From Kiritimatiellia bacterium (GTDB lineage: Bacteria > Verrucomicrobiota > Kiritimatiellia > RFP12 > UBA1067), in the NCBI GenBank assembly GCA_035449085.1, contig DAOTKE010000001.1, positions 1,232 to 65,231 on the forward strand: DNA of 64,000 nt. The letters run 5' to 3'. This document shows positions 2,929-52,813 of this stretch, in pieces. The position numbers and the translations under genes were made by a program. Each line of letters starts with the position of its first letter. Position 1 is the first letter of the stretch. Below the pieces are notes generated by a model, which saw nothing but the letters and a program-made list of their open reading frames with translations, searched no databases and was not told where the DNA came from.

Positions 2929-3002
2929 TGGAGCGGGCGATGGGAATCGAACCCACGTAAGAAGCTTGGGAAGCTCCTATTCTGCCATTGAATTACGCCC
3001 GC
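2929..3002 (-). tRNA. tRNA-Gly (anticodon CCC)
   Basis: Reverse complement GCGGGCGTAATTCAATGGCAGAATAGGAGCTTCCCAAGCTTCTTACGTGGGTTCGATTCCCATCGCCCGCTCCA folds as a cloverleaf: 7-bp acceptor stem GCGGGCG/CGCCCGC, D-stem ATTC/GAAT, anticodon stem GGAGC/GCTTC with loop TTCCCAA (anticodon CCC), T-loop TTCGATT, encoded CCA. Confidence 0.85.
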
Positions 3003-18207: not shown

Positions 18208-18359
18208 CGTTGCTTTTTAACGTGGAGACGGAGAGATGGAGAGACGCGGAGCAGGATGAAGGAGAGAACGCTGAACGTCGAACGCTGAACGCTGAACGTC
18301 GAACTCGGAAGTTGTGAGGGAGGGCGAGATCTCACACGAAGTGCACGAAGGCACGAAGG
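18204..18359. repeat. Copy 1 of a ~150-bp intergenic repeat element (contains a GAACGNN heptamer array 18266-18314 and CACGAAGG repeats)
   Basis: Aligns with 19175-19383. Shared TTTTTAACG..GAGACGG.GAG.., (GAACGYY)x5, GAACTCGGAAGTTGTGAGGG, CTCACACGAAG.GCACGAAGG.CACGAAGG. Starts exactly at the ftsW stop codon. Confidence 0.6.
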
Positions 18360-18480
18360 AAATAGCAGCGAGGGAAAAAACGAAGGTGCCCGATTCTCGC
18401 TTGACGAATGTGGTCACATGAGGCTACATTATGGCATGAAAAAGCAGAACCACAAGTATCCGCCGCAGAAAGCTGGAGCG

Positions 18481-18714
18481 ATGATTGCCGTTCGCGAGGC
18501 CAAGTCGCAGTTCTCGGCGTTGGTGGAGCGTGCGGCAGGGGGTGAGGAGATCATCATCACCTGGCATGGCCGTCCCAGGGCTCGGATGCTGCCTGTCGAT
18601 GAACCGCGAGGCAGGCTCCGTGTGGATCGGAGATGGCTCGAAAATATGCCAATAACCCATGCGACGAAAACGGTCGAAATTTTGGTGCGTGAGGATCGCG
18701 ATAATCGGGGGTAG
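18481..18714 (+). CDS. Type II antitoxin, Phd/YefM family
   Basis: MIAVREAKSQFSALVERAAGGEEIIITWHGRPRARMLP matches the Phd/YefM consensus. RBS GGAG 5 nt upstream. Stop 2 nt before the PIN toxin gene. Confidence 0.7.
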   Translation: MIAVREAKSQFSALVERAAGGEEIIITWHGRPRARMLPVDEPRGRLRVDRRWLENMPITHATKTVEILVREDRDNRG

Positions 18715-18716
18715 CG

Positions 18717-19178
18717 ATGTACGTGGACAGTGCCATCCTCGTCAAGTTGGTCGTACGGGAGCCCGACAGTCTTTTCTACGTCCAACTGCTGGAAAAATCT
18801 TCCGACCTGCGATCTTCGGAACTCGCCGTGACAGAGTGCCGCTCCGTTCTGGAGCGAAAGTGCCGCGAGGGAGAGCTGGGCGAAGCGACCCGAGATGGCG
18901 CTTGGCGTCGCCTCGGGACATATTGGCAGCGAGGCGGTGGGATTGTCCTTCACCCCGTTACACGTCTCGTCCTTGAAGAAGCTGGCGCGATGATCGCAGA
19001 ATGTATCGCCTCCGTGCCATTAAGGGCGCTCGATGCGATTCATCTCGCGACGTGTCGTCTTCACGGCGCGGTTCCGCTTGTCACCAGCGACCGGGTCATG
19101 CGGCAGGCGGCCCGTCATCTCGGCATTCCGTTGTCCGATCTTCCCGGCGCACCAGGGCTGCCCCTGATGACCCCGTAG
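18717..19178 (+). CDS. vapC: Type II toxin VapC (PIN-domain ribonuclease)
   Basis: 153 aa. PIN acidic residues (MYVDSAIL.., ..ELAVTE.., ..LDAIHLA.., ..TSD..). Immediately downstream of the antitoxin. Confidence 0.75.
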   Translation: MYVDSAILVKLVVREPDSLFYVQLLEKSSDLRSSELAVTECRSVLERKCREGELGEATRDGAWRRLGTYWQRGGGIVLHPVTRLVLEEAGAMIAECIASVPLRALDAIHLATCRLHGAVPLVTSDRVMRQAARHLGIPLSDLPGAPGLPLMTP

Positions 19179-19433
19179 TTTTTAACGCAGAGACGGGGAG
19201 ACGCGGAGAAGGAGGAAGGAAGAAGGAGGAAGGAGAGAACGCGGAATGTCGAACGTCGAACGCTGAACGCTGAACTCGGAAGTTGTGAGGGTGGGAGAGA
19301 CTGGGGGATTTAGTGCCTTGCGGCTCGACAAGCACAATAAAAAACAAGTTGTTTCTCACACGAAGCCACGAAGGGCACGAAGGTGGATGCCGTTTTAAAA
19401 GAAGCCTTTGTGGCCTTTGTGCCTTTGTGTGAG
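19175..19433 (+). repeat. Copy 2 of the intergenic repeat element, extended by a long strand-specific hairpin (19355-19433)
   Basis: Starts at the vapC stop. Carries a GA-rich heptamer run (GAGAAGG AGGAAGG AAGAAGG AGGAAGG) and a GAACGNN array (19237-19285). The 3' part folds into a 29-bp imperfect stem, CTCACACGAAGCCACGAAGGGCACGAAGG paired with CCTTTGTGGCCTTTGTGCCTTTGTGTGAG, with a 21-nt loop. The three G.U wobbles only form in the plus-strand transcript. Confidence 0.6.
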
Positions 19434-40188: not shown

Positions 40189-40731
40189 TTACGAGTTCAG
40201 ATTCTCTTCTTGGGAACGCACATAGTCGCGGGCCAGGATCAGGTTGTCGATCTCTTCGAGGTTTCCGAGCGCCTCAATCAGTTCGCCGCGCGAGACCCTG
40301 TACCGGTCATTGGGCGTGGTGCGTGTCAGGATCAAGTCGTAGGCCCCGCCGAAGGTCATCAGCCCAAGCAGGGTTTCCGGCAGGTCGCCGAAAGGCGGGG
40401 TATCCAGATGGCGCGCGTCGAGCGTGAAGGCCACGCGGGTTCCCTTGCCCGGTGTCGACTGGATATCCACCGTACCGTTCACTGCGGCGGTTGTCTGCAT
40501 GAGCAGGGGAATGCCCAATCCCACGCGACGTTTGGCGTGTTTGCCCGGCTCGCTGTAAAAGGGATCCTTGGCTTTCGCCAGCGTGCGTGCGTCCATACCC
40601 TTGCCATTGTCCTGAATGCAGACCCGTATCTCTGCGGGATCCGTCGCTACGTCAACCTCGATCCGTGTCGCGTCCGCCTCAATCGCATTCTGCACCAGGT
40701 CGGCGATGATGTCGCAGACAGACGCGTGCAC
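40189..40731 (-). CDS. Histidine-kinase-like ATPase (HATPase_c) domain protein embedded in hydrogenase operon
   Basis: 180 aa. N-box-like DLVQNAIEA, IRVCIQDNGKGMD (G1), GLGIPL (G2). Confidence 0.6.
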   Translation of the reverse strand: MHASVCDIIADLVQNAIEADATRIEVDVATDPAEIRVCIQDNGKGMDARTLAKAKDPFYSEPGKHAKRRVGLGIPLLMQTTAAVNGTVDIQSTPGKGTRVAFTLDARHLDTPPFGDLPETLLGLMTFGGAYDLILTRTTPNDRYRVSRGELIEALGNLEEIDNLILARDYVRSQEENLNS

Positions 40732-40734
40732 GGA

Positions 40735-41229
40735 TCAGCCTTCCCTGAATTTCGCGATGATCCCCTGCAGCGATTCGGTCTTCACCTTGCCGAACACTTC
40801 GCCGTTGATCACCATCACCGGCGCCAAACCGCAACATCCGAGGCAGCGGACCGCCTCCACCGAAAACTCGCCGTCCGGCGTGACGGTGTTGAGGCCAACG
40901 CCCAGGATGCCTTCCAGCTCAGCGATGATGTCATCGCCGCCCTTCAGATAGCAGGCGGTGCCCATGCAAACCTGGATCTGGTTGCGTCCCGGTTTCTTCA
41001 GCTTGAAGAAGTTGTAGAACGTTATGACGCCGTAAATTTTGGCGAGAGGCACGTCGATCAGATCGGCAACCTCAAACGCCACTTCTCGGGGGACAAACCC
41101 AAAATGCTGCTGCACACGGTGCAGGATCATGATCAGGTTGCCTGGCTTCTCTTTCCATTCGGCAATGAAAGCTTTCAGTTCTGGGGTCAGCTTCTGAACG
41201 CCTTGCGCCGTCGTCGGTGCGGTGCTCAC
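40735..41229 (-). CDS. NuoE-like [2Fe-2S] subunit of bifurcating hydrogenase (HndA/HydC)
   Basis: GTG start 41229 with RBS GGAGGTG. CMGTACYLKGG...CLGCCGLAP cysteine motif of NuoE/24-kDa family. Confidence 0.85.
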   Translation of the reverse strand: MSTAPTTAQGVQKLTPELKAFIAEWKEKPGNLIMILHRVQQHFGFVPREVAFEVADLIDVPLAKIYGVITFYNFFKLKKPGRNQIQVCMGTACYLKGGDDIIAELEGILGVGLNTVTPDGEFSVEAVRCLGCCGLAPVMVINGEVFGKVKTESLQGIIAKFREG

Positions 41230-41256
41230 GGTGTTTCACCTCCGCATTACCCGGGA

Positions 41257-41272
41257 CCTGTACCGCTACAGG
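41257..41272. promoter_or_regulatory. Inverted repeat CCTGTA-CCGC-TACAGG in hydrogenase-operon leader (candidate operator)
   Basis: 28-43 nt upstream of the operon's first start codon. Shares the CCTGTA/TACAGG half-sites with the 33494 palindrome. Confidence 0.25.
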
Positions 41273-41380
41273 ACACGGGGGGGTTACTCAAAAAAGATCG
41301 CGTGAGTATCTCAAAAACGGCCTGAACTTGCCAAGCTGAAATAGAACCTTTTTTATCGAACCAAAAATATCGATATGCCG

Positions 41381-42427
41381 TCACGCCATCGGGCAGCTTG
41401 TCTCGGCGGCCATGTAGTCACCGGTGGCGGCATAGGCGCGCGCCCGGCAGCCGCCGCATCCGTGGCGGAAAGCGCACCGACCGCACGCGCCGCGGTAACA
41501 GTCGGGCTGCCGCAGATCATTGAAGACCGGCGAGGTCTCGTAGGCGCGGCGGAAATCGAACCCATGCTCGCGCAGGTCGCCGCTGGGCACGTCGAGGAAT
41601 CCGCACGGCTGCAGGATGCCGGTGTGGGAGATGAAGACAAAACCGCGGCCGCCCATGCAGCCGGCAGGCGGCTGTCCGGGCTTGCCCAGCGCGTGCCAGA
41701 TCCGCACGGCTTGCGGCGCACACGTCTCACGCACGCGGATCGGGCCTTGGCGGTCCATTTCGAAGGCCCAGCGCAGGACGGCCTCTGCCTCGTCCGCAGG
41801 TAACGCGAGATCGCGCAGGCCGGCACCGCGCCCGACCGGCACCAGGAAGAAAAGGTCGAGCGTGCGCGCGCCGCGCGCGATCGCCTGTTCGCGGATGGCC
41901 GGCAGCGCGTCGCGGTTGAGCCGTGAGACGGTGGTGTTCACCTGGAAGGGCATGCCGATCTCTTGCGCGATGGACATGGCGCGCGTGACGTTGTCGAACG
42001 CGCCGGCTACGCCGCGGAAGGCGTCGTGATCTGCGGCGCAAGCGCCGTCGAGGCTGAAGCTGCATGCCATGACGCCGGCCTCTTGCAGGGCCAGCAGTCG
42101 GTCGCGGGTGACCAGCGTGCCGCACGGCGCCATGACCGAGCGCAAGCCGCGCGTCGCGGCGGCGCGCACGAGGTCGAGGATGTCGGGCCGTGCCATCGGC
42201 TCACCGCCGGTCCAGATGATCATCGGCCGGCAGAACGCGGCGAGGGAGTCCAGCACGCGCAGGCATTCGCCGGTCGTCAGCTCATGGTCATAGGCGCGGT
42301 CCTGGGCGCCGGCGCGGCAGTGGCGGCAGGCCAGCGGACAGCGGCGCGTGACTTCCCATGCGATCACGCGGGGCGTACCGGCGGGCGCTTCAGCGGCGGT
42401 GTGTCCATGGGGGGGGCGTGCGTTCAT
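41381..42427 (-). CDS. Radical SAM/SPASM-domain enzyme, NirJ/AhbC-AhbD-like (copy 2)
   Basis: 348 aa. CPLACRHC (CxxxCxxC), GGEPM SAM motif. C-terminal SPASM cysteines CGRCAFRHGCGGC..C. Confidence 0.75.
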   Translation of the reverse strand: MNARPPHGHTAAEAPAGTPRVIAWEVTRRCPLACRHCRAGAQDRAYDHELTTGECLRVLDSLAAFCRPMIIWTGGEPMARPDILDLVRAAATRGLRSVMAPCGTLVTRDRLLALQEAGVMACSFSLDGACAADHDAFRGVAGAFDNVTRAMSIAQEIGMPFQVNTTVSRLNRDALPAIREQAIARGARTLDLFFLVPVGRGAGLRDLALPADEAEAVLRWAFEMDRQGPIRVRETCAPQAVRIWHALGKPGQPPAGCMGGRGFVFISHTGILQPCGFLDVPSGDLREHGFDFRRAYETSPVFNDLRQPDCYRGACGRCAFRHGCGGCRARAYAATGDYMAAETSCPMA

Positions 42428-43611
42428 GAGCGGGCAGGCGCGATTTCTTCGTCTGTCAAATAACAGGCCGGATCCACGCCCCAGATGTCGCCGGTGGCGG
42501 CCTCGGCGCGCGCGCGGAAGTTGCCGCCGCAGACATCGAGAAAACGGCAGGCCACGCAGCGTCCTGTGACGTGCTGCTTTTTGGCGCGCAACTGAGCGAG
42601 CAGGCTGTCCGGCGCGGGCTCACCCCAGATTTTGCTGAAGGGGGTTTGGCGCACGTTCCCGAGCGGCTTGTTGCGCCAGAACTGATCCGGGTAAACGGTG
42701 CCGTCCCAGCTGATGCATCCGATGCCGTGGCCGGTGCTGTTGCCGCCGTTCATGCGCAGCAGTGTCATCACTTCGTCGGCGCGCGGATTCTGTTCGCGCA
42801 GCATGCGCAGATAGAGGTAGGGGCCGTCGCAATGGTTGTCCACGGTGAGCACCTCCACCGGGAAACCGCGCCTGTGCAGCCGTGCGGTGCGGTCGATGAT
42901 CAGATCCAGTGTGGCGCGGCGCTGCTCCGGCGCGAGGTCGTGCGACGCGATGTCGGCGCCGCGGCCGCAGTAGACCAGATGGTAGAGGCAGATGCGCGGA
43001 ATGCGTTCGGCCTCCATCAAATCAAAGATCGCCGGAATGTCGGCGACGTTGTCGCGGGTCATGGTGACGCGCAGACCGACCTTGATACCGGCCTCACGGC
43101 AGGCGCGGATGCCGGCCACGGAACGCTGGAACGCGCCGGGGCAAACGCGGAAACGGTCGTGCGTGGCCTCGCTGCCGTCGATGCTGATACCGACATACGA
43201 GACGCCGATCGCCTGAATCTGCGCGGCGAGCGCGGCGTCGATCAGGGTGCCGTTCGTCGAAAAGACCACACGCAGGCCCTTGCCGACGGCGTGGCGCGCG
43301 AGATCCAGAATGTCAGGCCGGATGAAGGGCTCGCCGCCCGAAAAGAGCAGGACGGGGCAGCCGAAGGCGGCCAGATCATCGATCAGGGCAAACGCCTCTT
43401 CAGTGGTCAGTTCGTCGGAGCTGCCTTGGGCTGCGGCATAGCAGTGGGTGCAGGCCAGGTTGCATGCAGAGGTGACGTTCCAGACGGCCACCGGCTTCTT
43501 GTCGGCGGAAAACTGCAGCAGATGGCTGGGCAGCTTAGAGGAATGACGGCCGTAACGCAGGGGGTCGGACACTTCGACCTGGCCCATGTAGAGCTTGGAA
43601 ATCCCGATCAT
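42424..43611 (-). CDS. Radical SAM/SPASM-domain enzyme, NirJ/AhbC-AhbD-like (copy 1)
   Basis: True start ATG 43611 (MIGISKLYMGQVEVSDPLRYGR). CNLACTHC, SGGEPF, C-terminal CVACRFLDVCGG..C. ATGA overlaps at both ends. Confidence 0.75.
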   Translation of the reverse strand: MIGISKLYMGQVEVSDPLRYGRHSSKLPSHLLQFSADKKPVAVWNVTSACNLACTHCYAAAQGSSDELTTEEAFALIDDLAAFGCPVLLFSGGEPFIRPDILDLARHAVGKGLRVVFSTNGTLIDAALAAQIQAIGVSYVGISIDGSEATHDRFRVCPGAFQRSVAGIRACREAGIKVGLRVTMTRDNVADIPAIFDLMEAERIPRICLYHLVYCGRGADIASHDLAPEQRRATLDLIIDRTARLHRRGFPVEVLTVDNHCDGPYLYLRMLREQNPRADEVMTLLRMNGGNSTGHGIGCISWDGTVYPDQFWRNKPLGNVRQTPFSKIWGEPAPDSLLAQLRAKKQHVTGRCVACRFLDVCGGNFRARAEAATGDIWGVDPACYLTDEEIAPARS

Positions 43612-46061
43612 GGATTCACCTTGTTTTCGTGGGTGGTTGGGAGGGGCGGCACAGCGGCGGTTGCAGCGGGCATGTCGCTGGTCAAGGGCTCGCGCACCGA
43701 AAAGGTGACTGGCGCGGAACCCACGACGAGACCGTTGGTGGTGGCGGCGGCGGCCCAGAGCGTGTAACGGCCGGTGCCGAGGCGCGACTGCGGCGGGCCT
43801 TTCTCGACGGTGGCCGAGCAGACGGGGGTCGCGGAGCAACCGAGACGCTTGTGGTCGAGAAACAGCGCGAGGAGACTGATGCCGACAGACGCATCGGCCT
43901 CGGCGCGCGCGGTCACAAAGGCGGGGCCGTCGATCACGCTGTCCGGAGCCGGCAACGTCACACGCACTTGCGGGATTGGGGCGCCGTCGGTCGAAACGCG
44001 GAATGTGACAGATATGTTTTTTTCGTGAAAGCGGCGATCGGCCGAGGTGGTCGTCACGACGACCGGCAAGATGCCTTTGGCGTAGTCGGCGGCGGTCGGC
44101 GCGAGTTGGACAGGGCTGCCGCTGTCGTTGTCGGGTGAGAAATAGATCTCTTGTGTGAATCGGCCGTTCTGCGCGATGCGGGCGCACACGATTTCACTGG
44201 GGCGCGTGGTCGGACGCAGCAGCACGGTATAACCGGTACTGGGCGAAACCGCTGTGCGGTCAAAAACCAATGATCCCGGCGAATGATCGTCGAGATTGAG
44301 CAGGAAGGGACGCAGATCGTTTGCGCCATCGATCCCTTTGTCTTCGGACTGGACGCTGGCCATCATATGGAAAAAAAGCGAGGGCGTGTTCGTGGCAGGC
44401 AAGACACGGATGGTTTGTTCGATGTCGAAGTTGTCCGGTGTGAAGACCAGCGACTCGCGCGAGAGTTGGGCGACACCCGGGATGTCGGTGGCGCAGAAGA
44501 CACGGGCCTCGCGTGTGGGGCGATCCCGTAACCGGATGCCGACGAACCCGGGCCTGTCGGTGTCGATGCGGTAGGTGCCGCTGCTCATGAGGATGGCGTT
44601 GACCGGTTCACGCAGTGTGGCGAGTTGGCGCATGGTGTCGAAGCCGATGCGGGCGCAGCGGTCATGCAGGCCGAGCGGGTGGTCGGCGTTGGCGTGCCGC
44701 GGCTTCGCCTTTTCGGGAGGCGGCACATAACGGTCCGTCACCGTGGTGTAGAGCATGTTGGCGAGCATGTAGGTCAACCAGTCGTTGACGCGTCCGGGGT
44801 GGGGCGGCCGGACAAGAGAGGCGTCGGTCTGGTAGGCGCGGGCCCAGGCGAGCGGATAGGGGATAAAGGCCATGCCGCGTGCTTTGGCGAATTCATAACC
44901 TTCGATCAGGATGGTTTCAAGGCGGCGCAGGGTGGCGAGTCCGTCCGGGTCGTCTGCCGGTGTGCGGCAGAAGACGGCCGTGCAGGGGGGCGGCTGATTG
45001 GTAGGGGGCTGGCTCAGCGATGTGTAGAGCTGGGGATCGGCGTAAAGGCTCATCTGTTGCATGTCGCCGTACACGAGGTCAAAGGCCGAAGCATAACGGT
45101 CAAAACCGTCGGAATACCAGTCGGCGGGCGTTTTCCAGAACCACTCCTGGAAAGCGGAGTCCAGGATGAACAGAAGGTTTTGGCGCAGGGGATCATCGGA
45201 GACGGTGTTGGGCACATAGATTTTGAGCCGGTGTTTGATGCGCGGCTCGATGCGCACGACACCCGAAAAGGGGCCGCTGTAGTGACGGGTCGTGCGCGCG
45301 ATCGAGACCGCATCGCGCGCGGAGAGTGCGAGCGCTTCGGTGGTGCGCCGGGTGGTCCAGTAGGTTTCGAGTGCTCCCTTGGGGATGCGCCCGCCCACGA
45401 GTTGGATATAGACGGTGGCGGCGGTCAGGTAGGCGCAGGCGCGGGCGCGTACCGGCGAGGTGCCGGGCAGACGGTTGCGGGCCAGGGTTTCTTGCCAAGC
45501 AAAGGCGGCAGGCACCACTTCCACGCCGCAACCGTCACCGACACGGTAGACCGTCTCTGCGATGGCGGGCAGGCGTTTATCGCGGAATGAGGTGCCGGGT
45601 TTGCTCATGACGGCCAGTGCCGTGCGCAGTCCGGCCGTGCGCGCCTGCGCATTGATCGCGCGGACGCCCTCGAAAAAGAACTCGGGATAGTCACTGACGC
45701 AAGCCTCGTGTTCCGCGAGCACGAGCAGGTCATACCCGCCGCTGAAAAGTTGCGCACGCTCGGCCTGGGTGTCCGGATGGTACCACCAGCCCATCAATGT
45801 GCGGGTGAGTGTGACCGGTACGAACGCGACCCGCACCGGCTTGCCGGGCTTGGCGGCTTTGAGCATGCTTTCGAGATCGGAACAGATATCGGCGGCGTCA
45901 ATCCCGCCGGCCTGCTGCGGCGTGGAGAGCCATGCCACGCGGATGAAGCCGTCGGCGTTGCGGTCGAGGTCAGACACTGATGCCTGTGACGGGCGCGGAG
46001 CAACCGTAGCCGCCAGCGCGGCCAGCCATCCGATGATCGGTATCCACAGCCGCTGGGTCAT
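43608..46061 (-). CDS. Secreted hypothetical protein (817 aa) with C-terminal Ig-like region
   Basis: True start ATG 46061 (MTQRLWIPIIGWLAALAATVA signal peptide) with RBS AGGAG. The upstream ORF extension is an antisense shadow. No recognisable catalytic motif. Confidence 0.55.
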   Translation of the reverse strand: MTQRLWIPIIGWLAALAATVAPRPSQASVSDLDRNADGFIRVAWLSTPQQAGGIDAADICSDLESMLKAAKPGKPVRVAFVPVTLTRTLMGWWYHPDTQAERAQLFSGGYDLLVLAEHEACVSDYPEFFFEGVRAINAQARTAGLRTALAVMSKPGTSFRDKRLPAIAETVYRVGDGCGVEVVPAAFAWQETLARNRLPGTSPVRARACAYLTAATVYIQLVGGRIPKGALETYWTTRRTTEALALSARDAVSIARTTRHYSGPFSGVVRIEPRIKHRLKIYVPNTVSDDPLRQNLLFILDSAFQEWFWKTPADWYSDGFDRYASAFDLVYGDMQQMSLYADPQLYTSLSQPPTNQPPPCTAVFCRTPADDPDGLATLRRLETILIEGYEFAKARGMAFIPYPLAWARAYQTDASLVRPPHPGRVNDWLTYMLANMLYTTVTDRYVPPPEKAKPRHANADHPLGLHDRCARIGFDTMRQLATLREPVNAILMSSGTYRIDTDRPGFVGIRLRDRPTREARVFCATDIPGVAQLSRESLVFTPDNFDIEQTIRVLPATNTPSLFFHMMASVQSEDKGIDGANDLRPFLLNLDDHSPGSLVFDRTAVSPSTGYTVLLRPTTRPSEIVCARIAQNGRFTQEIYFSPDNDSGSPVQLAPTAADYAKGILPVVVTTTSADRRFHEKNISVTFRVSTDGAPIPQVRVTLPAPDSVIDGPAFVTARAEADASVGISLLALFLDHKRLGCSATPVCSATVEKGPPQSRLGTGRYTLWAAAATTNGLVVGSAPVTFSVREPLTSDMPAATAAVPPLPTTHENKVNP

Positions 46062-47197
46062 CGTGCTCCTGCCGCAGCCGGACGCACGGGGCCGGCCTTC
46101 GAAAGGGGTTTGCCGATAATCCGCAGCAGGGTGGTTTCCAGAAGAAACATTTCGGGCAGCGCGCACGACACGAGCTTTTCGCGCAGATCCAAGATGCGGT
46201 AGCGCGCCACGCGGAGTTCCTGAAGCGTAAAGTTGAGGGCGTGGGGCAGCTTCTTCTTCAACGCCCACGTCCCGGTTGCGGTCGGGTTGACCGGCAACGC
46301 CTGCAGCAGCGCGGCCGCTTCGGGCGGCAGGTTCTTGCTCCAGCCGCAAGCGCCGCCCGTGCCGCCATAGACCCATTTGCGGTCATGGGCCTCGCGCAGA
46401 ATCAGCAGATCGCGCACCGTTTTTTCAAGCATCGAGGCGAGCATGACGCCGATGCCGCGCTGGCCGCTCAAGCGCTTGAGGGTCGTGAGGACGCCCAAGG
46501 CGTTGCGTTCGCCAAAGGCGTCGAGTAGATCCCAGGCCTCCGCCTCGCGGCCGATGGAGGTGATCTCGCGCACGTCGTTCACGGTGACACGCTGATTGGC
46601 CCCCACGTAGAGCCGCAGCTTCTCGATCTCGCTCACCAAGAGCCGCGTGTCGCAGCCGACGCGCGTCAGAAATTCGGTGCGTGCGGCCGCATCAACGGTG
46701 AGTCCCGCCTGAGCGAACAGGTCGTCTGCACGTTTCCCGGCCAGTTCTTCAAGTTCCCATGCCTTGAGGCCGTTCCCGAAGTCCTGCACCACGCCGTGCT
46801 GCTGGCAGGTTTTGAAAAAAATGGAGCTACGCAACACTTTGGTCGTCGTGATGATCAAAGACTGTCCTTCGAGCAGGCCGCCTTTCAGCCAGGCGACGAG
46901 CTTCTGGACGGCCTCTTTGGCGGCGATCGATTCGGAGCTGCGTCCGTTGCCAGGAAGAAAGGTCACATCGCGGAACCAGGTGACTTTGGTGGATCCGAAA
47001 AAGCCGGGTGTCTGCACCGATTCCAGACAGGCGTCCACGGCCTTGCTGATCTCATCGGAAGTGTCGCGGTGGCCATCCACGGTCTCGACGCCAAACGCGC
47101 GATCTGACTCCGGTACGAGTTGGTTGATCCTCTCGCGCGCAGCCATATCGACGAGATAATCGTCGTCACCGCAAATAAGACACAGTTTCCCTTCCAT
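46058..47197 (-). CDS. holA: DNA polymerase III subunit delta (HolA)
   Basis: 379 aa. Conserved pattern ..LICGDDDYL.., EIEKLRLYVG, WDLLDAF. Confidence 0.7.
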   Translation of the reverse strand: MEGKLCLICGDDDYLVDMAARERINQLVPESDRAFGVETVDGHRDTSDEISKAVDACLESVQTPGFFGSTKVTWFRDVTFLPGNGRSSESIAAKEAVQKLVAWLKGGLLEGQSLIITTTKVLRSSIFFKTCQQHGVVQDFGNGLKAWELEELAGKRADDLFAQAGLTVDAAARTEFLTRVGCDTRLLVSEIEKLRLYVGANQRVTVNDVREITSIGREAEAWDLLDAFGERNALGVLTTLKRLSGQRGIGVMLASMLEKTVRDLLILREAHDRKWVYGGTGGACGWSKNLPPEAAALLQALPVNPTATGTWALKKKLPHALNFTLQELRVARYRILDLREKLVSCALPEMFLLETTLLRIIGKPLSKAGPVRPAAAGAR

Positions 47198-47245: not shown

Positions 47246-48178
47246 TCATTTTCGCGGGGATATTCGCACGGCCATTGGGATGACGAAAGGCAGGCGGGCG
47301 TCTTTGACAAACCAGCGCGTGCCTTCGATGGTGACCTCGGCACCGATGTGCGGCCCGTAGGCGAGTTCCGGAGCCAACAGGTTGCAGAGGGGGACGGCAT
47401 CGCCGTCCGGCTCACGGGCCACGAGACAGAAGGGGGCGGAGATCGGGTCGATCCCGCCCCAGTCCAAGGTGCCGCGCAAGGTGACACGTTCGCCTTGGAC
47501 GGCGGTCTCATCCAGCACGAACCCGGCCAGTTCCGGAGGACGATGCACGACTCGGGGCGGTGTTGCAGGAGGCATGGGATCGGGGAAGCCCGGATCGGAC
47601 GGTGCGGCGGGATCAGACGGTTGCGCAGGCGGCTCGGACAATGCATTGAGCAGTGCGCGGTAAAGGTCGGTCGATGCCTGCGGCGCATCGGGCTCGCGGG
47701 GCCATTCAGCCAGCGGCTCGACCTGGTCGCGCAAGACCCAAAATGTCATGTTGGTGGGCGGGGCGATCTTGAGCCAGTCACCATACATGCCGCGTACCTG
47801 AACGGCCGTGCCGCGGTCAAGACTGGCAAGCGGGCGGAAGGCCGGGCCCGCGCCGGAGCGCACCAGACTCTTGTCGGCCAGCACCTTGCCGTCGCGGACG
47901 AGATCGCGGTAGATCCACACCGCGACCGAGGAAGGCGCCTCGACCGGTGTCCAGGGGGCGTCAGTCAACTCGCCGACAACGGCGAGCACCGACCCGGCGG
48001 GCAGCCAGGCAACCGCCTCGAGCGGTGAGTTGGTCGAGGCATAGAGCGCGAGACGCCCTTGGATGCCGCGCACGCTGCTGCCGCCAACCGCTTCGGCAAA
48101 GACCATCGTTCCGGCGGCCAACGCCGGCAAAAGCAACGGCAGGAACGCATGCCGTGAACGGGACGTGCGGAGTACCAC
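47246..48178 (-). CDS. Secreted bacterial SH3-like (SH3b) domain protein
   Basis: Signal peptide. VRSGAGPAFRPLASLDRGTAVQVRGMYGDWLKI matches the SH3b consensus. Pro-rich linker. Confidence 0.5.
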   Translation of the reverse strand: MVLRTSRSRHAFLPLLLPALAAGTMVFAEAVGGSSVRGIQGRLALYASTNSPLEAVAWLPAGSVLAVVGELTDAPWTPVEAPSSVAVWIYRDLVRDGKVLADKSLVRSGAGPAFRPLASLDRGTAVQVRGMYGDWLKIAPPTNMTFWVLRDQVEPLAEWPREPDAPQASTDLYRALLNALSEPPAQPSDPAAPSDPGFPDPMPPATPPRVVHRPPELAGFVLDETAVQGERVTLRGTLDWGGIDPISAPFCLVAREPDGDAVPLCNLLAPELAYGPHIGAEVTIEGTRWFVKDARLPFVIPMAVRISPRK

Positions 48179-48646: not shown

Positions 48647-51600
48647 ATGATTTTGGGAAGACTCCTTATGATCAATAAGCTGTTTTTGGGCGACTCCCGT
48701 GAGGGTGCTTTTTTCCGTCGGGTGGATTGGACGGCCTTCTGGACCGCAACGCTGATTTCGTTTTTGGTTTACTTCTTTACGTTGGGGCCGTCGGTGACGC
48801 TGGAGGACTCCGGCGAGCTGGCGGTTGCGGGCGATCATCTGGGTGTGCCGCATCCGCCCGGCTATCCGATCTGGACGATGTGTGCCTTTGTGTTTGCGCG
48901 CCTCTTCAGTTGGGTGACCTATCAGGGGCAGCCGACGCCAGCGTGGAGCATCTCGCTGATGTCGGCGTTCTTTGCCGCGCTGGCGGCCGGCTTCACGGCG
49001 ATGTTGATCACGCGTTCGGCAACCGACATGCTGCGTGACGCGCATGACGGTGAGGAGGATTTCGATCCGGCTCAGAGCAATGTGCTGTGCTGGGTGGGCG
49101 GCGTCGGCGGCAGTCTGGTCTTTGCCTTCAGCCCGGTCATGTGGTCGCAGGCCACGATCGTGGAGGTGTACACGCTGAACGCCTTCTTCCTGATGTGGAT
49201 CTTCCTGTTGACCTATCGCTGGATGCGGCGTCCATCTGACAAAATTTTGTGGTTGACCGCCTTTGTTTTCGGGCTTGGCCTCACCAACTATCAGGTGCTG
49301 TTGCTGGCGGCGCTGCCGCTGGTGGTCATGATCTTCCTGCGTGACCTCGCCCTGTTCCGCGATTTCCTCATGGTCGGCATTCCGATCTTGCTGAGTGCGC
49401 ATGTGTTGCAGATAGGCGCGATGATGCCCGCTCAGCCCGGCATGGCGGGGCCCGCCTACGCGAAGGTGACGCCAGGCGCGTTGAATGCGGTAATGGTGCC
49501 CTCTCTGTCGCTGCTGGTGGCGGGCGCGGTGTGTGTGTTCTTGGGATTGATCGCGGCGCTGTTCCTGAAGGGCTGCGCGACCGGCGGAGCAACGAAAGGG
49601 CGTTTCGCGTTTCTCAAGAGTGTGGCGCCGCAAGGCGGCGCGATCGGCGCGGGTCTGACGGCCTTCGGCGCGTTACTGGTCTTCTTCTCGATGGGGGCGG
49701 CGAAGACCGGCGTGAAGGCGGCGACCGACCTGCCGCTGTTTGAGTCCTCGGTCTACACCAGTGTGGCGGGGCTGATCCTGTTGGTGCTCGCGCTCTGCAT
49801 CGGTGGCGCGTATGCGTACCGTGACCGGCTCAACGATAAGGCGGTGCTGGCCTGGTTGATCCCGGCGTGCGCGATGCTGCTGATCCTCTTTTTCAGGCTT
49901 TCCGCCATCAAAGGCACTGTGTTGCCACCAGGCTACATGGGACAGCCATTTGATTGGGCGCTGCCGTCGGTTGCGCTGATGGGTGGGCTGGCGGTGCTCT
50001 TTCTGCTGGGGGCGACCGTGCCGCGGGGCCTCTTCTACGCGATTCCCGTGGCGGCGGTGCAGATCTCCGTGTTTGTGCTGTTGCGCAAGGGCGGCATGAA
50101 CGGTCTGACGCACCCGACCTCCTGGTGGTTCTGGTGGGGCGCACTCTGGAATTTCGTCATCATCGGGCTGGCGTGGCTGACCCTGCCGCACGGGCGCAGC
50201 GTCGCGCTGACCACGCTCTGCGCCGAGTTGGGCGTGTCGTTCTACATTTACATGCCGATTGTCTCGGACCTGCGCAATCCGCCCATGAACTGGGGCTACC
50301 CGCGCACGTGGGAAGGGTTCAAGCACGCCATCACGCGCGGCCAGTATGAGAAGCTGGCGCCCTCCGATGTTTTCACCAAGAAGTTCCTCTTCCAGCTCGG
50401 CACCTACTTTACCGACCTGCGCGTGCAGTTCACCCTGATCGCGGCCACGCTGGGCTTCATCCCCTTCACGCTCTGGAGCTTCAAAATCGGCGGACGACGT
50501 ATCCGCGCCTTGTATGTGGCGAGTGCGTTCTATCTGCTGACCTGTGTGGTGGTGCTGCTTTCCGAAGTTATGGGCGGCGAGCCGGTGTTGCGTCTCGACA
50601 AACTCTTTATCGCGGCCATCCTGCTACTGTTACTGGTCGGCACCACTACGATCATGTTCCGCCAGATCGAAGAGTTCGCGCGCCGTACTTGGCGGGCGCA
50701 CAATCTTTCGGAGGGGCTGACAGCCGGCATCACGCTGGCGGGCATAGCGGCGGGCGTCGGACTTTTCGTGGCCAAAGGCATCCTCAGCATGATGAGCGGG
50801 CCGGGCATTGTGCCGGGTATCGGCGCCAAGGTCGGTGCGCTGGCTTTGGCGCTGGTTATCCTGGCGGCGGTCGGCACCGGCTGGTTCTTTTTCCGCCGGT
50901 GGGCCGAACGGCAGGTCGACTTCCGCTCGGACATGGATATGGTCACACAGCAGTGGCTCATCTCCACGACAGCCGGTTTCTTGGTCATGAGCGTGTTGCT
51001 CGTGGTGCTCGCCAACATCAAGGGCGACCTGCAGGACATGTTCATCCAGAAAGTGAAGTTCATCAGCTCGCACGGCCTCTTTGCGATCTGGATCGGTTAC
51101 GGCCTCGTTTTCGGTCTGTCGGTCGGCAACCGCCTGCTGAAGACTTTGGTCAAGCGCGGTACGTTGCCTGCGGCTTTGCTGAAGCCGTTGCGCACCGGCA
51201 TGCTGTGCGCGGGACTGTTGGTCGCGGCCATCCCGATCTACGAGAACTACACCAACGAGTATCTGGTCTTTTCGATGAGCGGCGCGGAACAGAACGGCCA
51301 CGATTTCGGCTGGCAGTTCGGCAATTACCAGTTGCGCGGCGCGGACGCGATCACGGAGGAGCTGGATGCCGACGAGGAGCCGCTGCCCAACCCGCTCTAC
51401 CCGCCAGAAATGGAGCCCAACGCCATCTTTTTCGGCGGCACGGATCCCGGGCGCTTTGTGCCCACCTACATGATCTACTCGGCGCGGGTGCGGCCCGACG
51501 TTTTCCTGATCACGCAGAACGCGCTGGCCGACAACACCTACATGAACACCATGCGCGACCTGTACGGCAATCCTATCTGGATTCCGACGCCGGACGACAG

Positions 51601-52813
51601 CGCGCGCGCCTTTCAGATTTATGTCGATGAGGTGCAGGCAGGCAAGCGCCCCAAGAACGCCGATCTGACGATCGAGAACGGCCGCGTGCAGGTGAGCGGT
51701 GCGCTGGGCGTGATGGAGATCAACGGCATCCTGTGCGACATGATCTTCCAGAAGAACAAGGCGCGTCACGCTTTCTATATCGAAGAGAGCTACGTCATCA
51801 ACTGGATGTTCCCGTATCTCACGCCGCACGGGCTGATCATGAAGATCAACTCCGAGCGGACGCCGATCGAGCGTACGAACATGCAGGACGATATGATGTT
51901 CTGGGATTGGTACACGCGCCACCTGCTGCGCTCTCCGATGTTCCGGCGCGACCTGCCGGCCCAGAAGTCGTTCTCCAAGTTGCGCAGCGCGATCGCCGGT
52001 CTTTATGCGGCACGCGGCATGCTGGTCGAAAGCGAGCGGGCGTTCCAGGAGGCGCGGACGCTCTATCCGGTCAGCCCGGAGGCCAATTTCCGCCTGGTCC
52101 AAGAGGTGTTGCTGCGCCAGGCGCGCTACGACGAGGCGATCGACATTCTCGATGAGTACAACCGGCGCGACCCGAACAACGGGCGCGGCTTCGATTTCGT
52201 CTCGTTCATTCGCCGCGTGCGCGCGACCGAGGCCAAAGTGCGCGACCTGACCGCCAAAGCGCAGGCCAACAAGCAGCTCTCACCGGAAGACGCCTTTGAA
52301 CTGGCCATGGCCTACCGCGAGCTGGGGCAAAACGAACCGGCCGCTTCCTATCTCAACCAACTGGCGGTCCTGCCCAATCTCCCGGTCGAGCGGCTGCTCG
52401 AAATCGGCGCGTTGCTCGGCAGCCTCAAGAAGCATGAAGATGCTGCCAAGGTGATGGATAACGTGATGGCGCGCCTGCCGGCCAACCTCCCGCCTGAACA
52501 GCTCATGGAGATCGTGCGGGTGTACGGCGATGCTGGCCAGCCGGACAAGATGATCGTACCGCTTTCGCGTTATCTGCAGATCCGCCCGAATGATTGGAAC
52601 GCATGGATCGACATGGCGACACTCAGCGCGTTGCGCCAGCAGCAGCAACAGATGCAATACGCGTTGCGTAAGGCGCTGGAACTGGGCAAAGGGCAGGCGA
52701 TGCAGCGGATTCAGGAGAACGGTGTGCTGCGTCAGGTTGCAGGGCCGATTTTGCAGCAGATGATGCAGCAGGGGCCGGTCGGGCTGCCGGGCCTGGGGCC
52801 GCGAGGGCAGTGA
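48647..52813 (+). CDS. DUF2723 (TMEM260-like GT-C glycosyltransferase fold) membrane protein with C-terminal TPR repeats
   Basis: 1388 aa, more than 20 TM helices. DSGELAVAGDHLGVPHPPGYP is the DUF2723 hallmark. C-terminal 400 aa are TPR-like. Confidence 0.7.
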   Translation: MILGRLLMINKLFLGDSREGAFFRRVDWTAFWTATLISFLVYFFTLGPSVTLEDSGELAVAGDHLGVPHPPGYPIWTMCAFVFARLFSWVTYQGQPTPAWSISLMSAFFAALAAGFTAMLITRSATDMLRDAHDGEEDFDPAQSNVLCWVGGVGGSLVFAFSPVMWSQATIVEVYTLNAFFLMWIFLLTYRWMRRPSDKILWLTAFVFGLGLTNYQVLLLAALPLVVMIFLRDLALFRDFLMVGIPILLSAHVLQIGAMMPAQPGMAGPAYAKVTPGALNAVMVPSLSLLVAGAVCVFLGLIAALFLKGCATGGATKGRFAFLKSVAPQGGAIGAGLTAFGALLVFFSMGAAKTGVKAATDLPLFESSVYTSVAGLILLVLALCIGGAYAYRDRLNDKAVLAWLIPACAMLLILFFRLSAIKGTVLPPGYMGQPFDWALPSVALMGGLAVLFLLGATVPRGLFYAIPVAAVQISVFVLLRKGGMNGLTHPTSWWFWWGALWNFVIIGLAWLTLPHGRSVALTTLCAELGVSFYIYMPIVSDLRNPPMNWGYPRTWEGFKHAITRGQYEKLAPSDVFTKKFLFQLGTYFTDLRVQFTLIAATLGFIPFTLWSFKIGGRRIRALYVASAFYLLTCVVVLLSEVMGGEPVLRLDKLFIAAILLLLLVGTTTIMFRQIEEFARRTWRAHNLSEGLTAGITLAGIAAGVGLFVAKGILSMMSGPGIVPGIGAKVGALALALVILAAVGTGWFFFRRWAERQVDFRSDMDMVTQQWLISTTAGFLVMSVLLVVLANIKGDLQDMFIQKVKFISSHGLFAIWIGYGLVFGLSVGNRLLKTLVKRGTLPAALLKPLRTGMLCAGLLVAAIPIYENYTNEYLVFSMSGAEQNGHDFGWQFGNYQLRGADAITEELDADEEPLPNPLYPPEMEPNAIFFGGTDPGRFVPTYMIYSARVRPDVFLITQNALADNTYMNTMRDLYGNPIWIPTPDDSARAFQIYVDEVQAGKRPKNADLTIENGRVQVSGALGVMEINGILCDMIFQKNKARHAFYIEESYVINWMFPYLTPHGLIMKINSERTPIERTNMQDDMMFWDWYTRHLLRSPMFRRDLPAQKSFSKLRSAIAGLYAARGMLVESERAFQEARTLYPVSPEANFRLVQEVLLRQARYDEAIDILDEYNRRDPNNGRGFDFVSFIRRVRATEAKVRDLTAKAQANKQLSPEDAFELAMAYRELGQNEPAASYLNQLAVLPNLPVERLLEIGALLGSLKKHEDAAKVMDNVMARLPANLPPEQLMEIVRVYGDAGQPDKMIVPLSRYLQIRPNDWNAWIDMATLSALRQQQQQMQYALRKALELGKGQAMQRIQENGVLRQVAGPILQQMMQQGPVGLPGLGPRGQ

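Follow-up and report, generated by a model that had tools for sequence, protein, structure and literature searches.

Predicted AhbC and AhbD radical SAM enzymes encoded beside holA and an undescribed secreted protein family in a Kiritimatiellia bacterium

We analyzed a chain of four genes in a 64,000-nucleotide stretch of chromosomal DNA from a Kiritimatiellia bacterium, which is represented by a metagenome-assembled genome (MAG). The whole stretch is called the window; all coordinates are those of the window. The chain consists of holA, a gene for an 817-residue predicted secreted protein (p817), and two genes for radical S-adenosylmethionine (SAM) enzymes, rSAM1 and rSAM2. Very probably, these enzymes are AhbC and AhbD, which catalyze the final two steps of siroheme-dependent heme b synthesis, and the chain is a juxtaposition of two independent pairs, holA-p817 and ahbC-ahbD. 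The real oddity of the locus is the p817 family, which is undescribed, Kiritimatiellae-wide, and ~800 amino acids in length, and not the radical SAM pair.

A first-pass annotation of this DNA had reported holA, a large signal-peptide protein, and two paralogous radical SAM/SPASM enzymes in series, and all four genes are present on the minus strand over the span it described. Identical metagenome contigs carry the same gene calls for holA, p817, rSAM1, and rSAM2. The window proteins have the accessions HRR33360-63, and p817 and holA bear the locus tags P5026_04645/50. The genes and their junctions are as follows.

46058-47197, minus strand: holA, DNA polymerase III delta subunit, 379 aa (TIGR01128, 122.6 bits; cut-off 80)
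46058-46061, minus strand: ATGA overlap of the holA stop and p817 start, with AGGAG 4 nt 5' of the ATG
43608-46061, minus strand: p817, 817-aa predicted secreted protein of a Kiritimatiellae-restricted family without a described function
43608-43611, minus strand: ATGA overlap of the p817 stop and ahbC start, with AAGGTG 5' of the ATG
42424-43611, minus strand: ahbC (rSAM1), 395 aa, predicted 12,18-didecarboxysiroheme deacetylase / Fe-coproporphyrin III synthase (TIGR04546)
42424-42427, minus strand: ATGA overlap of the ahbC stop and ahbD start, with no obvious Shine-Dalgarno sequence
41381-42427, minus strand: ahbD (rSAM2), 348 aa, predicted radical SAM heme b synthase / coproheme decarboxylase (TIGR04545)

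Family assignment of the two radical SAM enzymes

rSAM1 and rSAM2 are paralogues (34% identity, E = 3e-40). The best family for rSAM1 was TIGR04546, the AhbC equivalog, with a hidden Markov model (HMM) score of 628.9 bits (E = 2.6e-189) over HMM positions 1-390 of 390. It scored 480 bits on NirJ1 and 388.6 bits on NirJ (TIGR04051), so that AhbC stands 149 bits above NirJ1 and ~240 bits above NirJ. The models of maturases acting on ribosomally synthesized and post-translationally modified peptides (RiPPs), including StsB and mycofactocin, gave at most 124 bits, and PqqE gave 90 bits. For rSAM2, the best family was TIGR04545, the AhbD equivalog (343 bits, E = 2.2e-102, HMM positions 1-335 of 339); NirJ2 gave 273 bits, and the PqqE and mycofactocin maturase models gave ~121 bits. 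Over both enzymes, maturase models reached no more than 150 bits, compared with 343-629 bits for the Ahb models. AhbC and AhbD had been one of two options raised by the first-pass annotation, and they are the best families for rSAM1 and rSAM2, respectively.

The sequence motifs are consistent with this assignment. The N-terminus of rSAM1 reads MIGISKLYMGQVEVSDPLRYGR, which is of the ISKLY..LRYGR type noted earlier, and the radical SAM motif CX3CX2C is present as CNLACTHC at residues 50-57, also as noted earlier. Residues 352-383 of rSAM1 form the motif CX2CX5CX21C (CVACRFLDVC...C), which falls within CX2CX5CX20-21C, the C-terminal auxiliary-cluster motif described for NirJ/AhbC (PMC10114771). 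In rSAM2, the radical SAM motif is CPLACRHC at residues 30-37, and a SPASM motif, CX12GX4C, lies at residues 257-275. Its residues 315-345 read CGRCAFRHGCGGC-X17-C, corresponding to CX2CX5CX2CX17C, the motif quoted for AhbD (PMC10114771). The Pfam scan of both enzymes detected only Radical_SAM, Fer4_12, and SPASM, and no PqqD/RRE-type domain. A sequence search of the PDB with AhbC and AhbD returned no Ahb structure, the nearest entries being PqqE, BlsE, and SkfB.

Two other candidate functions were rejected. NirJ, which acts in heme d1 synthesis, was ruled out for rSAM1 by its score (388.6 versus 628.9 bits for AhbC) together with the lack of nir genes in the window. The abundance of sulfatases in Kiritimatiellae made an anSME function attractive; no anSME model was among the best 25 families listed for either enzyme.

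Public annotations of these genes are inconsistent or wrong. NCBI mostly labels relatives of rSAM1 "radical SAM protein," JGI already labels members of its 90%-identity cluster "12,18-didecarboxysiroheme deacetylase," and one relative (OQC23463.1, Verrucomicrobia ADurb.Bin070) is labeled [quoted passage not shown] The names ahbC and ahbD can now be given to genes that NCBI calls only "radical SAM protein." The assignment also has corrective value, as it halts a plausible account of radical SAM maturases and a secreted substrate that is already an error in at least one public record ("AlbA").

Heme genes in related genomes and elsewhere in the MAG

A scan of 185,579 species genomes identified 80 loci with an AhbC relative at 62-95% identity. 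These came from Kiritimatiellae, then Lentisphaerae/Victivallales, and then Smithella/Syntrophaceae (63-65% identity), which are classical Ahb-pathway Deltaproteobacteria. By tblastn mapping, AhbD is encoded directly downstream of AhbC in most loci of the Planctomycetes-Verrucomicrobia-Chlamydiae (PVC) group and 1-2 kb downstream in Smithella. We clustered the flanking open reading frames (ORFs) and scanned representatives with NCBIfam. In Victivallales, Tichowtungia, and others (L058, L060, L063, L065, L078, L080, and L089 among them), the order is ccsB-like (in some loci), ahbC, ahbD, a fused AhbA-AhbB, a SirC-HemA fusion, a HemC-CobA-HemD fusion, and HemB, which is a complete siroheme-dependent heme cluster. 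Fused AhbAB follows ahbD directly in at least 17 loci, and in these clusters both halves score above cut-off (NF040707, 212-219 bits against 125; NF040708, 150-167 bits against 140). A ccsB-like gene stands at one end of the ahb-hem cluster in five related loci. The Smithella order is sirC-ccsA-hemA-hemC-cobA/hemD-ahbC-hemB-ahbD. The in-cluster AhbC orthologues share 62-68% identity with rSAM1, and the AhbD orthologues encoded between ahbC and ahbAB share 50-57% with rSAM2.

In other Kiritimatiellae, ahbCD lies amid unrelated ORFs, some of which read from the N-terminus as selA-, nadB-, tatD-, or DUF2851-like (read without an HMM check). The first-pass annotation had called the context of the pair non-standard. 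This was overstated in that Kiritimatiellae ahb genes are scattered among housekeeping genes. Loci L046-L057, from rumen and gut Kiritimatiellae MAGs, have ahbC without adjacent ahbD. At L046, a hemC-cobA-hemD fusion lies just upstream of ahbC on the opposite strand.

The siroheme decarboxylase partners were reported earlier as missing from the window, and this is correct: neither ahbA nor ahbB was found there by Pfam scans of essentially all ORFs or by tblastn with the AhbAB of the MAG itself (best E = 0.097). The window likewise contained no AsnC/NirD-like gene, hem genes, or cytochrome genes. A search for ahbA/ahbB in the rest of the genome had been proposed, and it succeeded. As a query, we used the fused AhbAB of a close relative, L044 (AhbC 81% identity), in which the order is holA-p817-ahbC-ahbAB-pdxB. 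This query retrieved P0130 (HRR32727.1, locus tag P5026_01375, Kiritimatiellia bacterium), which is above both cut-offs (AhbB NF040707, 223.9 bits against 125; AhbA NF040708, 152 bits against 140). P0130 has in common with the window proteins the locus-tag prefix P5026, the HRR accession series, and the samples of origin, and a sister MAG (locus-tag prefix P5111) carries an equivalent protein set. The P0130 gene lies between smc and pdxB (L095:6281-12224), on contigs that share their samples with those of the window. A fused AhbAB is thus encoded in the same MAG as the window, away from ahbCD. The comparison of smc-ahbAB-pdxB with ahbC-ahbAB-pdxB of L044 suggests that an ancestral ahbC-(ahbD)-ahbAB-pdxB block was divided in the window lineage. 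According to the first-pass annotation, strong HMM matches to AhbC and AhbD, with ahbAB elsewhere, would point to ordinary heme biosynthesis rather than protein modification. Here, these two models score best and a fused ahbAB lies elsewhere in the MAG, in favour of ordinary heme biosynthesis.

Several points weigh against assigning the pair to AhbC and AhbD. Both enzymes score below the curated cut-offs of their best families, rSAM1 by 21 bits (628.9 against 650 for TIGR04546) and rSAM2 by more (343 against 500 for TIGR04545), and for rSAM2 TIGR04053, an uncharacterised family, comes close behind AhbD with 313 bits. The in-cluster AhbD orthologue of L058 is likewise under the TIGR04545 cut-off (397 bits). 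A Kiritimatiellae HemC-CobA-HemD fusion used as a query retrieved at least 120 clusters from these bacteria; the look-ups of these clusters gave no HRR-series accession, and hemA/L/B, hemC-cobA-hemD, sirC, and a hemoprotein were not tied to the MAG. AhbC/AhbD activity in the PVC group is itself a prediction from sequence. Furthermore, the phylum type species, Kiritimatiella glycovorans, has been reported to lack cytochromes (PMC5148204). This reported lack contrasts with the ahbC/D, fused ahbAB, and hemC-cobA-hemD fusions that are widespread in Kiritimatiellae MAGs. One complete chromosome, OW818680.1 (6.1 Mb), carries both ahbCD (L036) and a HemC-CobA-HemD fusion (P0488).

The pair may instead act on a tetrapyrrole without leading to heme b, in a NirJ-like step of heme d1 type or in the formation of a lineage-specific modified heme or coproheme, with rSAM2 functionally a TIGR04053 protein. 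The evidence on rSAM2 is divided: its AhbD score is only 30 bits above that of TIGR04053 and below the cut-off, but it contains the AhbD-specific CX2CX5CX2CX17C. rSAM1 scores far higher on AhbC than on NirJ or NirJ1, and the window yielded no genes of nirS/F/N type. Gene content in relatives is likewise mixed. Some gut and rumen Kiritimatiellae hold ahbC without adjacent ahbD, L094 holds ahbD without ahbC, and AhbD is known outside full Ahb pathways (PMC13564367). However, orthologues of the pair also lie within ahbAB-hemA-hemC-cobA-hemD-hemB clusters, and the ccsB-like gene at the end of five of these is typical of heme b/c supply. We regard such a function as quite improbable.

If rSAM1 and rSAM2 are AhbC and AhbD, the pathway would follow the steps described in PMC10114771 and PMC13564367. 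AhbAB, encoded elsewhere in the genome, would convert siroheme to 12,18-didecarboxysiroheme. AhbC would then remove the two acetate side chains to yield Fe-coproporphyrin III (coproheme), and AhbD would oxidatively decarboxylate two coproheme propionates to vinyls, giving heme b. Each of the two enzymes would use a [4Fe-4S]/SAM site at CX3CX2C and one or more C-terminal auxiliary clusters. We infer these enzymatic activities, as well as co-transcription of the four genes, from the sequence. The siroheme-dependent pathway has been ascribed to "archaea and sulfate-reducing bacteria" (PMC11306076, PMC10114771), and we found nothing specific in the literature on heme biosynthesis in Kiritimatiellae or PVC bacteria. 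Our survey points to a pathway that is widespread in Kiritimatiellae and Lentisphaerae, with AhbA-AhbB, SirC-HemA, and HemC-CobA-HemD fusions, and with its genes scattered in some lineages.

The holA-p817 pair and its relation to ahbCD

The junctions within the chain are tight. Three ATGA overlaps link the four genes, and not four as first reported, since holA is preceded by a 48-nt gap. The lack of an obvious Shine-Dalgarno sequence at the ahbC/ahbD junction makes translational coupling of ahbD to ahbC plausible. At least four further ATGA junctions occur within the window (16009, 22225, 22929, and 27030). Only the closest relatives retain the overlaps of the chain; where the gene order persists at more distant loci, gaps of ~10-160 nt separate the genes, as judged from tblastn alignment ends. 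The gene compaction is therefore real but unremarkable.

The N-terminus of p817 reads MTQRLWIPIIGWLAALAATVAPRPSQA, which is Sec-type signal-like and forms a low-confidence helix in the model, as judged by the predicted local distance difference test (pLDDT). The signal peptide would be cleaved and p817 secreted. The predicted domains of p817 are as follows.

45981-46061, minus strand: residues 1-27, Sec-type signal-peptide-like N-terminus with a basic residue, a hydrophobic core, and SQA-S
44607-45950, minus strand: residues ~38-485, two predicted α/β (β-α-β) domains, at least one of them SGNH/DUF4886-like (model and Foldseek)
43689-44597, minus strand: residues ~489-791, three predicted β-sandwich (immunoglobulin [Ig]-like) domains (model, Big_7, Foldseek, and profile search)

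We found 82 full-length p817 homologues (38-100% identity), all of whose named sources are MAGs of Kiritimatiellae type. p817 matched no Pfam or NCBIfam family except for a weak match to Big_7. Among 30 family members, Big_7 was matched in 18, and no Pfam family covered the first 490 residues. A profile search of 1.84 billion representatives returned about six full-length matches and giant adhesins matching the Ig region (profile positions ~484-700), with no distant homologue of the N-terminal part among the 150 best matches listed. Against the PDB, the p817 sequence matched only a 94-aa Ig domain (E = 0.017).

The AlphaFold2 model of p817 was confident (pLDDT 88.5, predicted TM-score 0.86). 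Foldseek with the whole model returned only tandem-Ig proteins (complement C3, SiiE, and cadherin) at a TM of ~0.1, which was uninformative. Therefore, the N-terminal 460 residues were modeled separately (residues 28-487, pLDDT 91.9). This model matched 4i8i (DUF4886; E = 1e-5) in the PDB, as well as Axe2 (3w7v) and other SGNH esterases (E = 5e-5 to 1e-3; TMt 0.5-0.68, ~0.6). Strand order in the model would indicate which of the two α/β domains is the one aligned to SGNH/DUF4886 proteins. S46, located after β1, is Ser in 27 of the 30 aligned members and Gly in the other 3, and no conserved DxxH (block V) was seen near the domain end in this alignment. Invariant or near-invariant residues include H260, H461, H466, M436, and C178, and p817 has only one invariant Cys. 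Given the fold and the polysaccharide-degrading lifestyle of the phylum (PMC5148204), our best guess is that p817 is a periplasmic or surface protein facing glycans, of an esterase-like or binding type.

The constant partner of p817 is holA. Outside the window, holA is directly upstream of p817 in 21 of 22 loci, and the remaining locus ends at a contig end. The spacing is 4-16 nt or a 4-nt overlap, even at 40% p817 identity. ahbC or ahbD is downstream of p817 in 18 of the 22 loci, all within one subclade in which p817 identity does not fall below 53% (53-86%). These counts, with the ahb neighbours confined to one subclade, indicate that holA-p817 is the conserved unit and that the link between p817 and ahbCD had a single origin in the class. 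In three loci with divergent p817 (L010, L011, and L012; 40-46% identity), holA is 4-16 nt upstream and no rSAM gene is nearby; the genes 3' of p817 are tsf/rpsB, a type II secretion/pseudopilin cluster, or ahpC. Two of these MAGs carry ahbC-ahbD on another contig (L029 and L033). Conversely, most ahbCD loci lack p817. One relative (L094:6853-11531, JGI 3300037044) has the order holA-p817-ahbD with no ahbC between and a gap of ~95 nt, from which it follows that ahbC was lost or relocated in that relative.

These data bear on the second option of the first-pass annotation, in which the radical SAM pair would be maturases (anSME- or RiPP-like) modifying the co-encoded p817, with the ATGA coupling reflecting enzyme-substrate pairing. 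We find this barely credible. This strain does couple the genes tightly, and the order p817-ahbC-ahbD persists throughout the subclade delimited by 53% p817 identity; however, the p817 homologues at 40-46% identity lack an adjacent rSAM gene, with ahbCD present elsewhere in two of those genomes, and orthologues of ahbCD are found in complete heme clusters or amid unrelated genes. The SPASM class does include protein and peptide maturases, which are seen here as weak secondary HMM matches, and one public relative carries the label "AlbA," but the AhbC and AhbD models are best by wide margins, the 25 best families listed include no anSME model, and neither enzyme has a PqqD/RRE domain of the kind expected for RiPP recognition. 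A look for a modifiable motif in the predicted structure of p817 had been proposed. The model shows a large, folded, multidomain protein with no repeated modifiable motif. The modification of p817 by the pair is not supported.

A further possibility is that selection favoured the adjacency of p817 and ahbCD in one subclade because p817 requires heme or takes part in handling it, for example as a hemoprotein or heme-trafficking factor of the periplasm. In this case, the enzymes would still be AhbC and AhbD. The conserved residues H260, H461, H466, M436, and C178 could ligate a cofactor, but p817 contains no CXXCH, other known heme-binding motif, or Pfam heme domain. The order p817-ahbC or p817-ahbD recurs in the 18 related loci noted above, whereas the deepest p817 branches lack ahb adjacency, the invariant partner is holA rather than ahb, and ahb genes in this group are normally beside unrelated housekeeping genes (e.g., smc-ahbAB-pdxB). 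This makes a selected adjacency very unlikely. A broader idea, with only a small chance of being correct, casts p817 either as an essential factor of the envelope or as a periplasmic protein that depends on heme or handles it. Under this idea, p817 expression would be deliberately coupled to the replication gene holA and, within one subclade, also to the enzymes that complete heme synthesis.

Under the favoured reading of two juxtaposed pairs, holA-p817-ahbC-ahbD would be a lineage-specific operon assembled by rearrangement of scattered housekeeping genes. In this strain, it would be one translationally coupled unit that is probably co-transcribed, with no functional dependence between p817 and the radical SAM enzymes. 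The holA-linked secreted p817 family is a candidate for later study.

Neighbouring genes and comparison with known systems

The genes and spacers that adjoin the chain, together with other features of the window, are listed below.

47246-48178, minus strand: SH3_3-domain secreted protein gene, 48 nt upstream of holA
41230-41380, minus strand: 151-nt spacer between ahbD and the hndA-like gene
40735-41229, minus strand: hndA-like gene, first of an hnd-type [FeFe] hydrogenase operon, 151 nt downstream of ahbD
40189-40731, minus strand: 180-aa HATPase_c (histidine-kinase-like ATPase) protein within the hydrogenase operon, between the NuoE-like subunit and a 129-aa subunit
48647-52813, plus strand: 1388-aa membrane protein with a TMEM260/DUF2723-like N-terminus and C-terminal TPR repeats, divergent from the SH3-holA block
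18228-18359 and 19185-19383, plus strand: direct repeat of ~130 nt (77-88% identical) flanking the antitoxin and toxin genes
18418-18714, plus strand: Phd/YefM-like antitoxin ORF, directly after ftsW in the dcw cluster
18717-19178, plus strand: PIN/VapC toxin gene, after the antitoxin ORF
2929-3002, minus strand: tRNA-Gly(CCC); Rfam and ARAGORN detected no other RNA gene in the 64 kb

The SH3_3 neighbour of holA is kept in many relatives (L013, L016, L017, L024, L031, L035, L052, L085, and L093), so the transcription unit may begin further upstream than holA. Downstream, the chain had been described as directly upstream of the hydrogenase operon, and the operon does begin at 41229. It adjoins ahbD only in the nearest relatives, L015 and L017, and not in L016 (AhbC 88% identity). 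The spacer contains one terminator-like and one promoter-like consensus match; these counts are near shuffle expectation and were not used as evidence. The window also contains the dcw cluster, ABC transporters, PFK, PGM, IleRS, and PATR-repeat proteins, and its [FeFe] hydrogenase operon is of the bifurcating type. The 1388-aa membrane protein resembles protein O-mannosyltransferases. The core 20-mer of the flanking direct repeat occurs at only those two sites in the window, and 18228-19383 looks like an inserted toxin-antitoxin cassette.

Compared with AhbC of Methanosarcina barkeri and Desulfovibrio, rSAM1 shares a full-length HMM match, the CX3CX2C and CX2CX5CX21C motifs, an adjacent ahbD, and orthologues in ahbAB/hem clusters. 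In contrast to those systems, it falls 21 bits short of the curated cut-off and comes from a presumably fermentative, hydrogen-producing Kiritimatiellia bacterium of the PVC group, and its gene is separated from ahbAB and joined in an operon with holA and p817. rSAM2 resembles AhbD of M. barkeri and D. vulgaris in its best HMM family, its CX3CX2C, CX12GX4C, and CX2CX5CX2CX17C motifs, and the position of its gene directly 3' of ahbC, but it is divergent, as seen in its shortfall from the 500-bit cut-off and the nearness of TIGR04053. NirJ, NirJ1, and NirJ2 are members of the superfamily that includes AhbC, share its substrate class (didecarboxysiroheme), and resemble it in the ISKLY...LRYG N-terminus. 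They nevertheless score 150-240 bits under AhbC for rSAM1 and 70 bits under AhbD for rSAM2, and the window has no heme d1/nir context.

For p817, the nearest structural comparison is with SGNH/DUF4886 proteins (4i8i and Axe2, 3w7v), onto which an α/β domain of the model superposes with Foldseek E-values of 1e-5 to 1e-4. Identity to these proteins is only 9-16%, p817 lacks a Pfam match, and it adds a second α/β domain, three Ig-like domains, and a constant pairing with holA. In Proteobacteria, lptE is linked to holA, such that an envelope protein gene is conserved beside holA. The holA-p817 pair is similar in placing an envelope protein gene next to holA, although this is an analogy only: the two genes stand in the opposite order, and p817, which has no lipobox Cys, does not qualify as a small lipoprotein.

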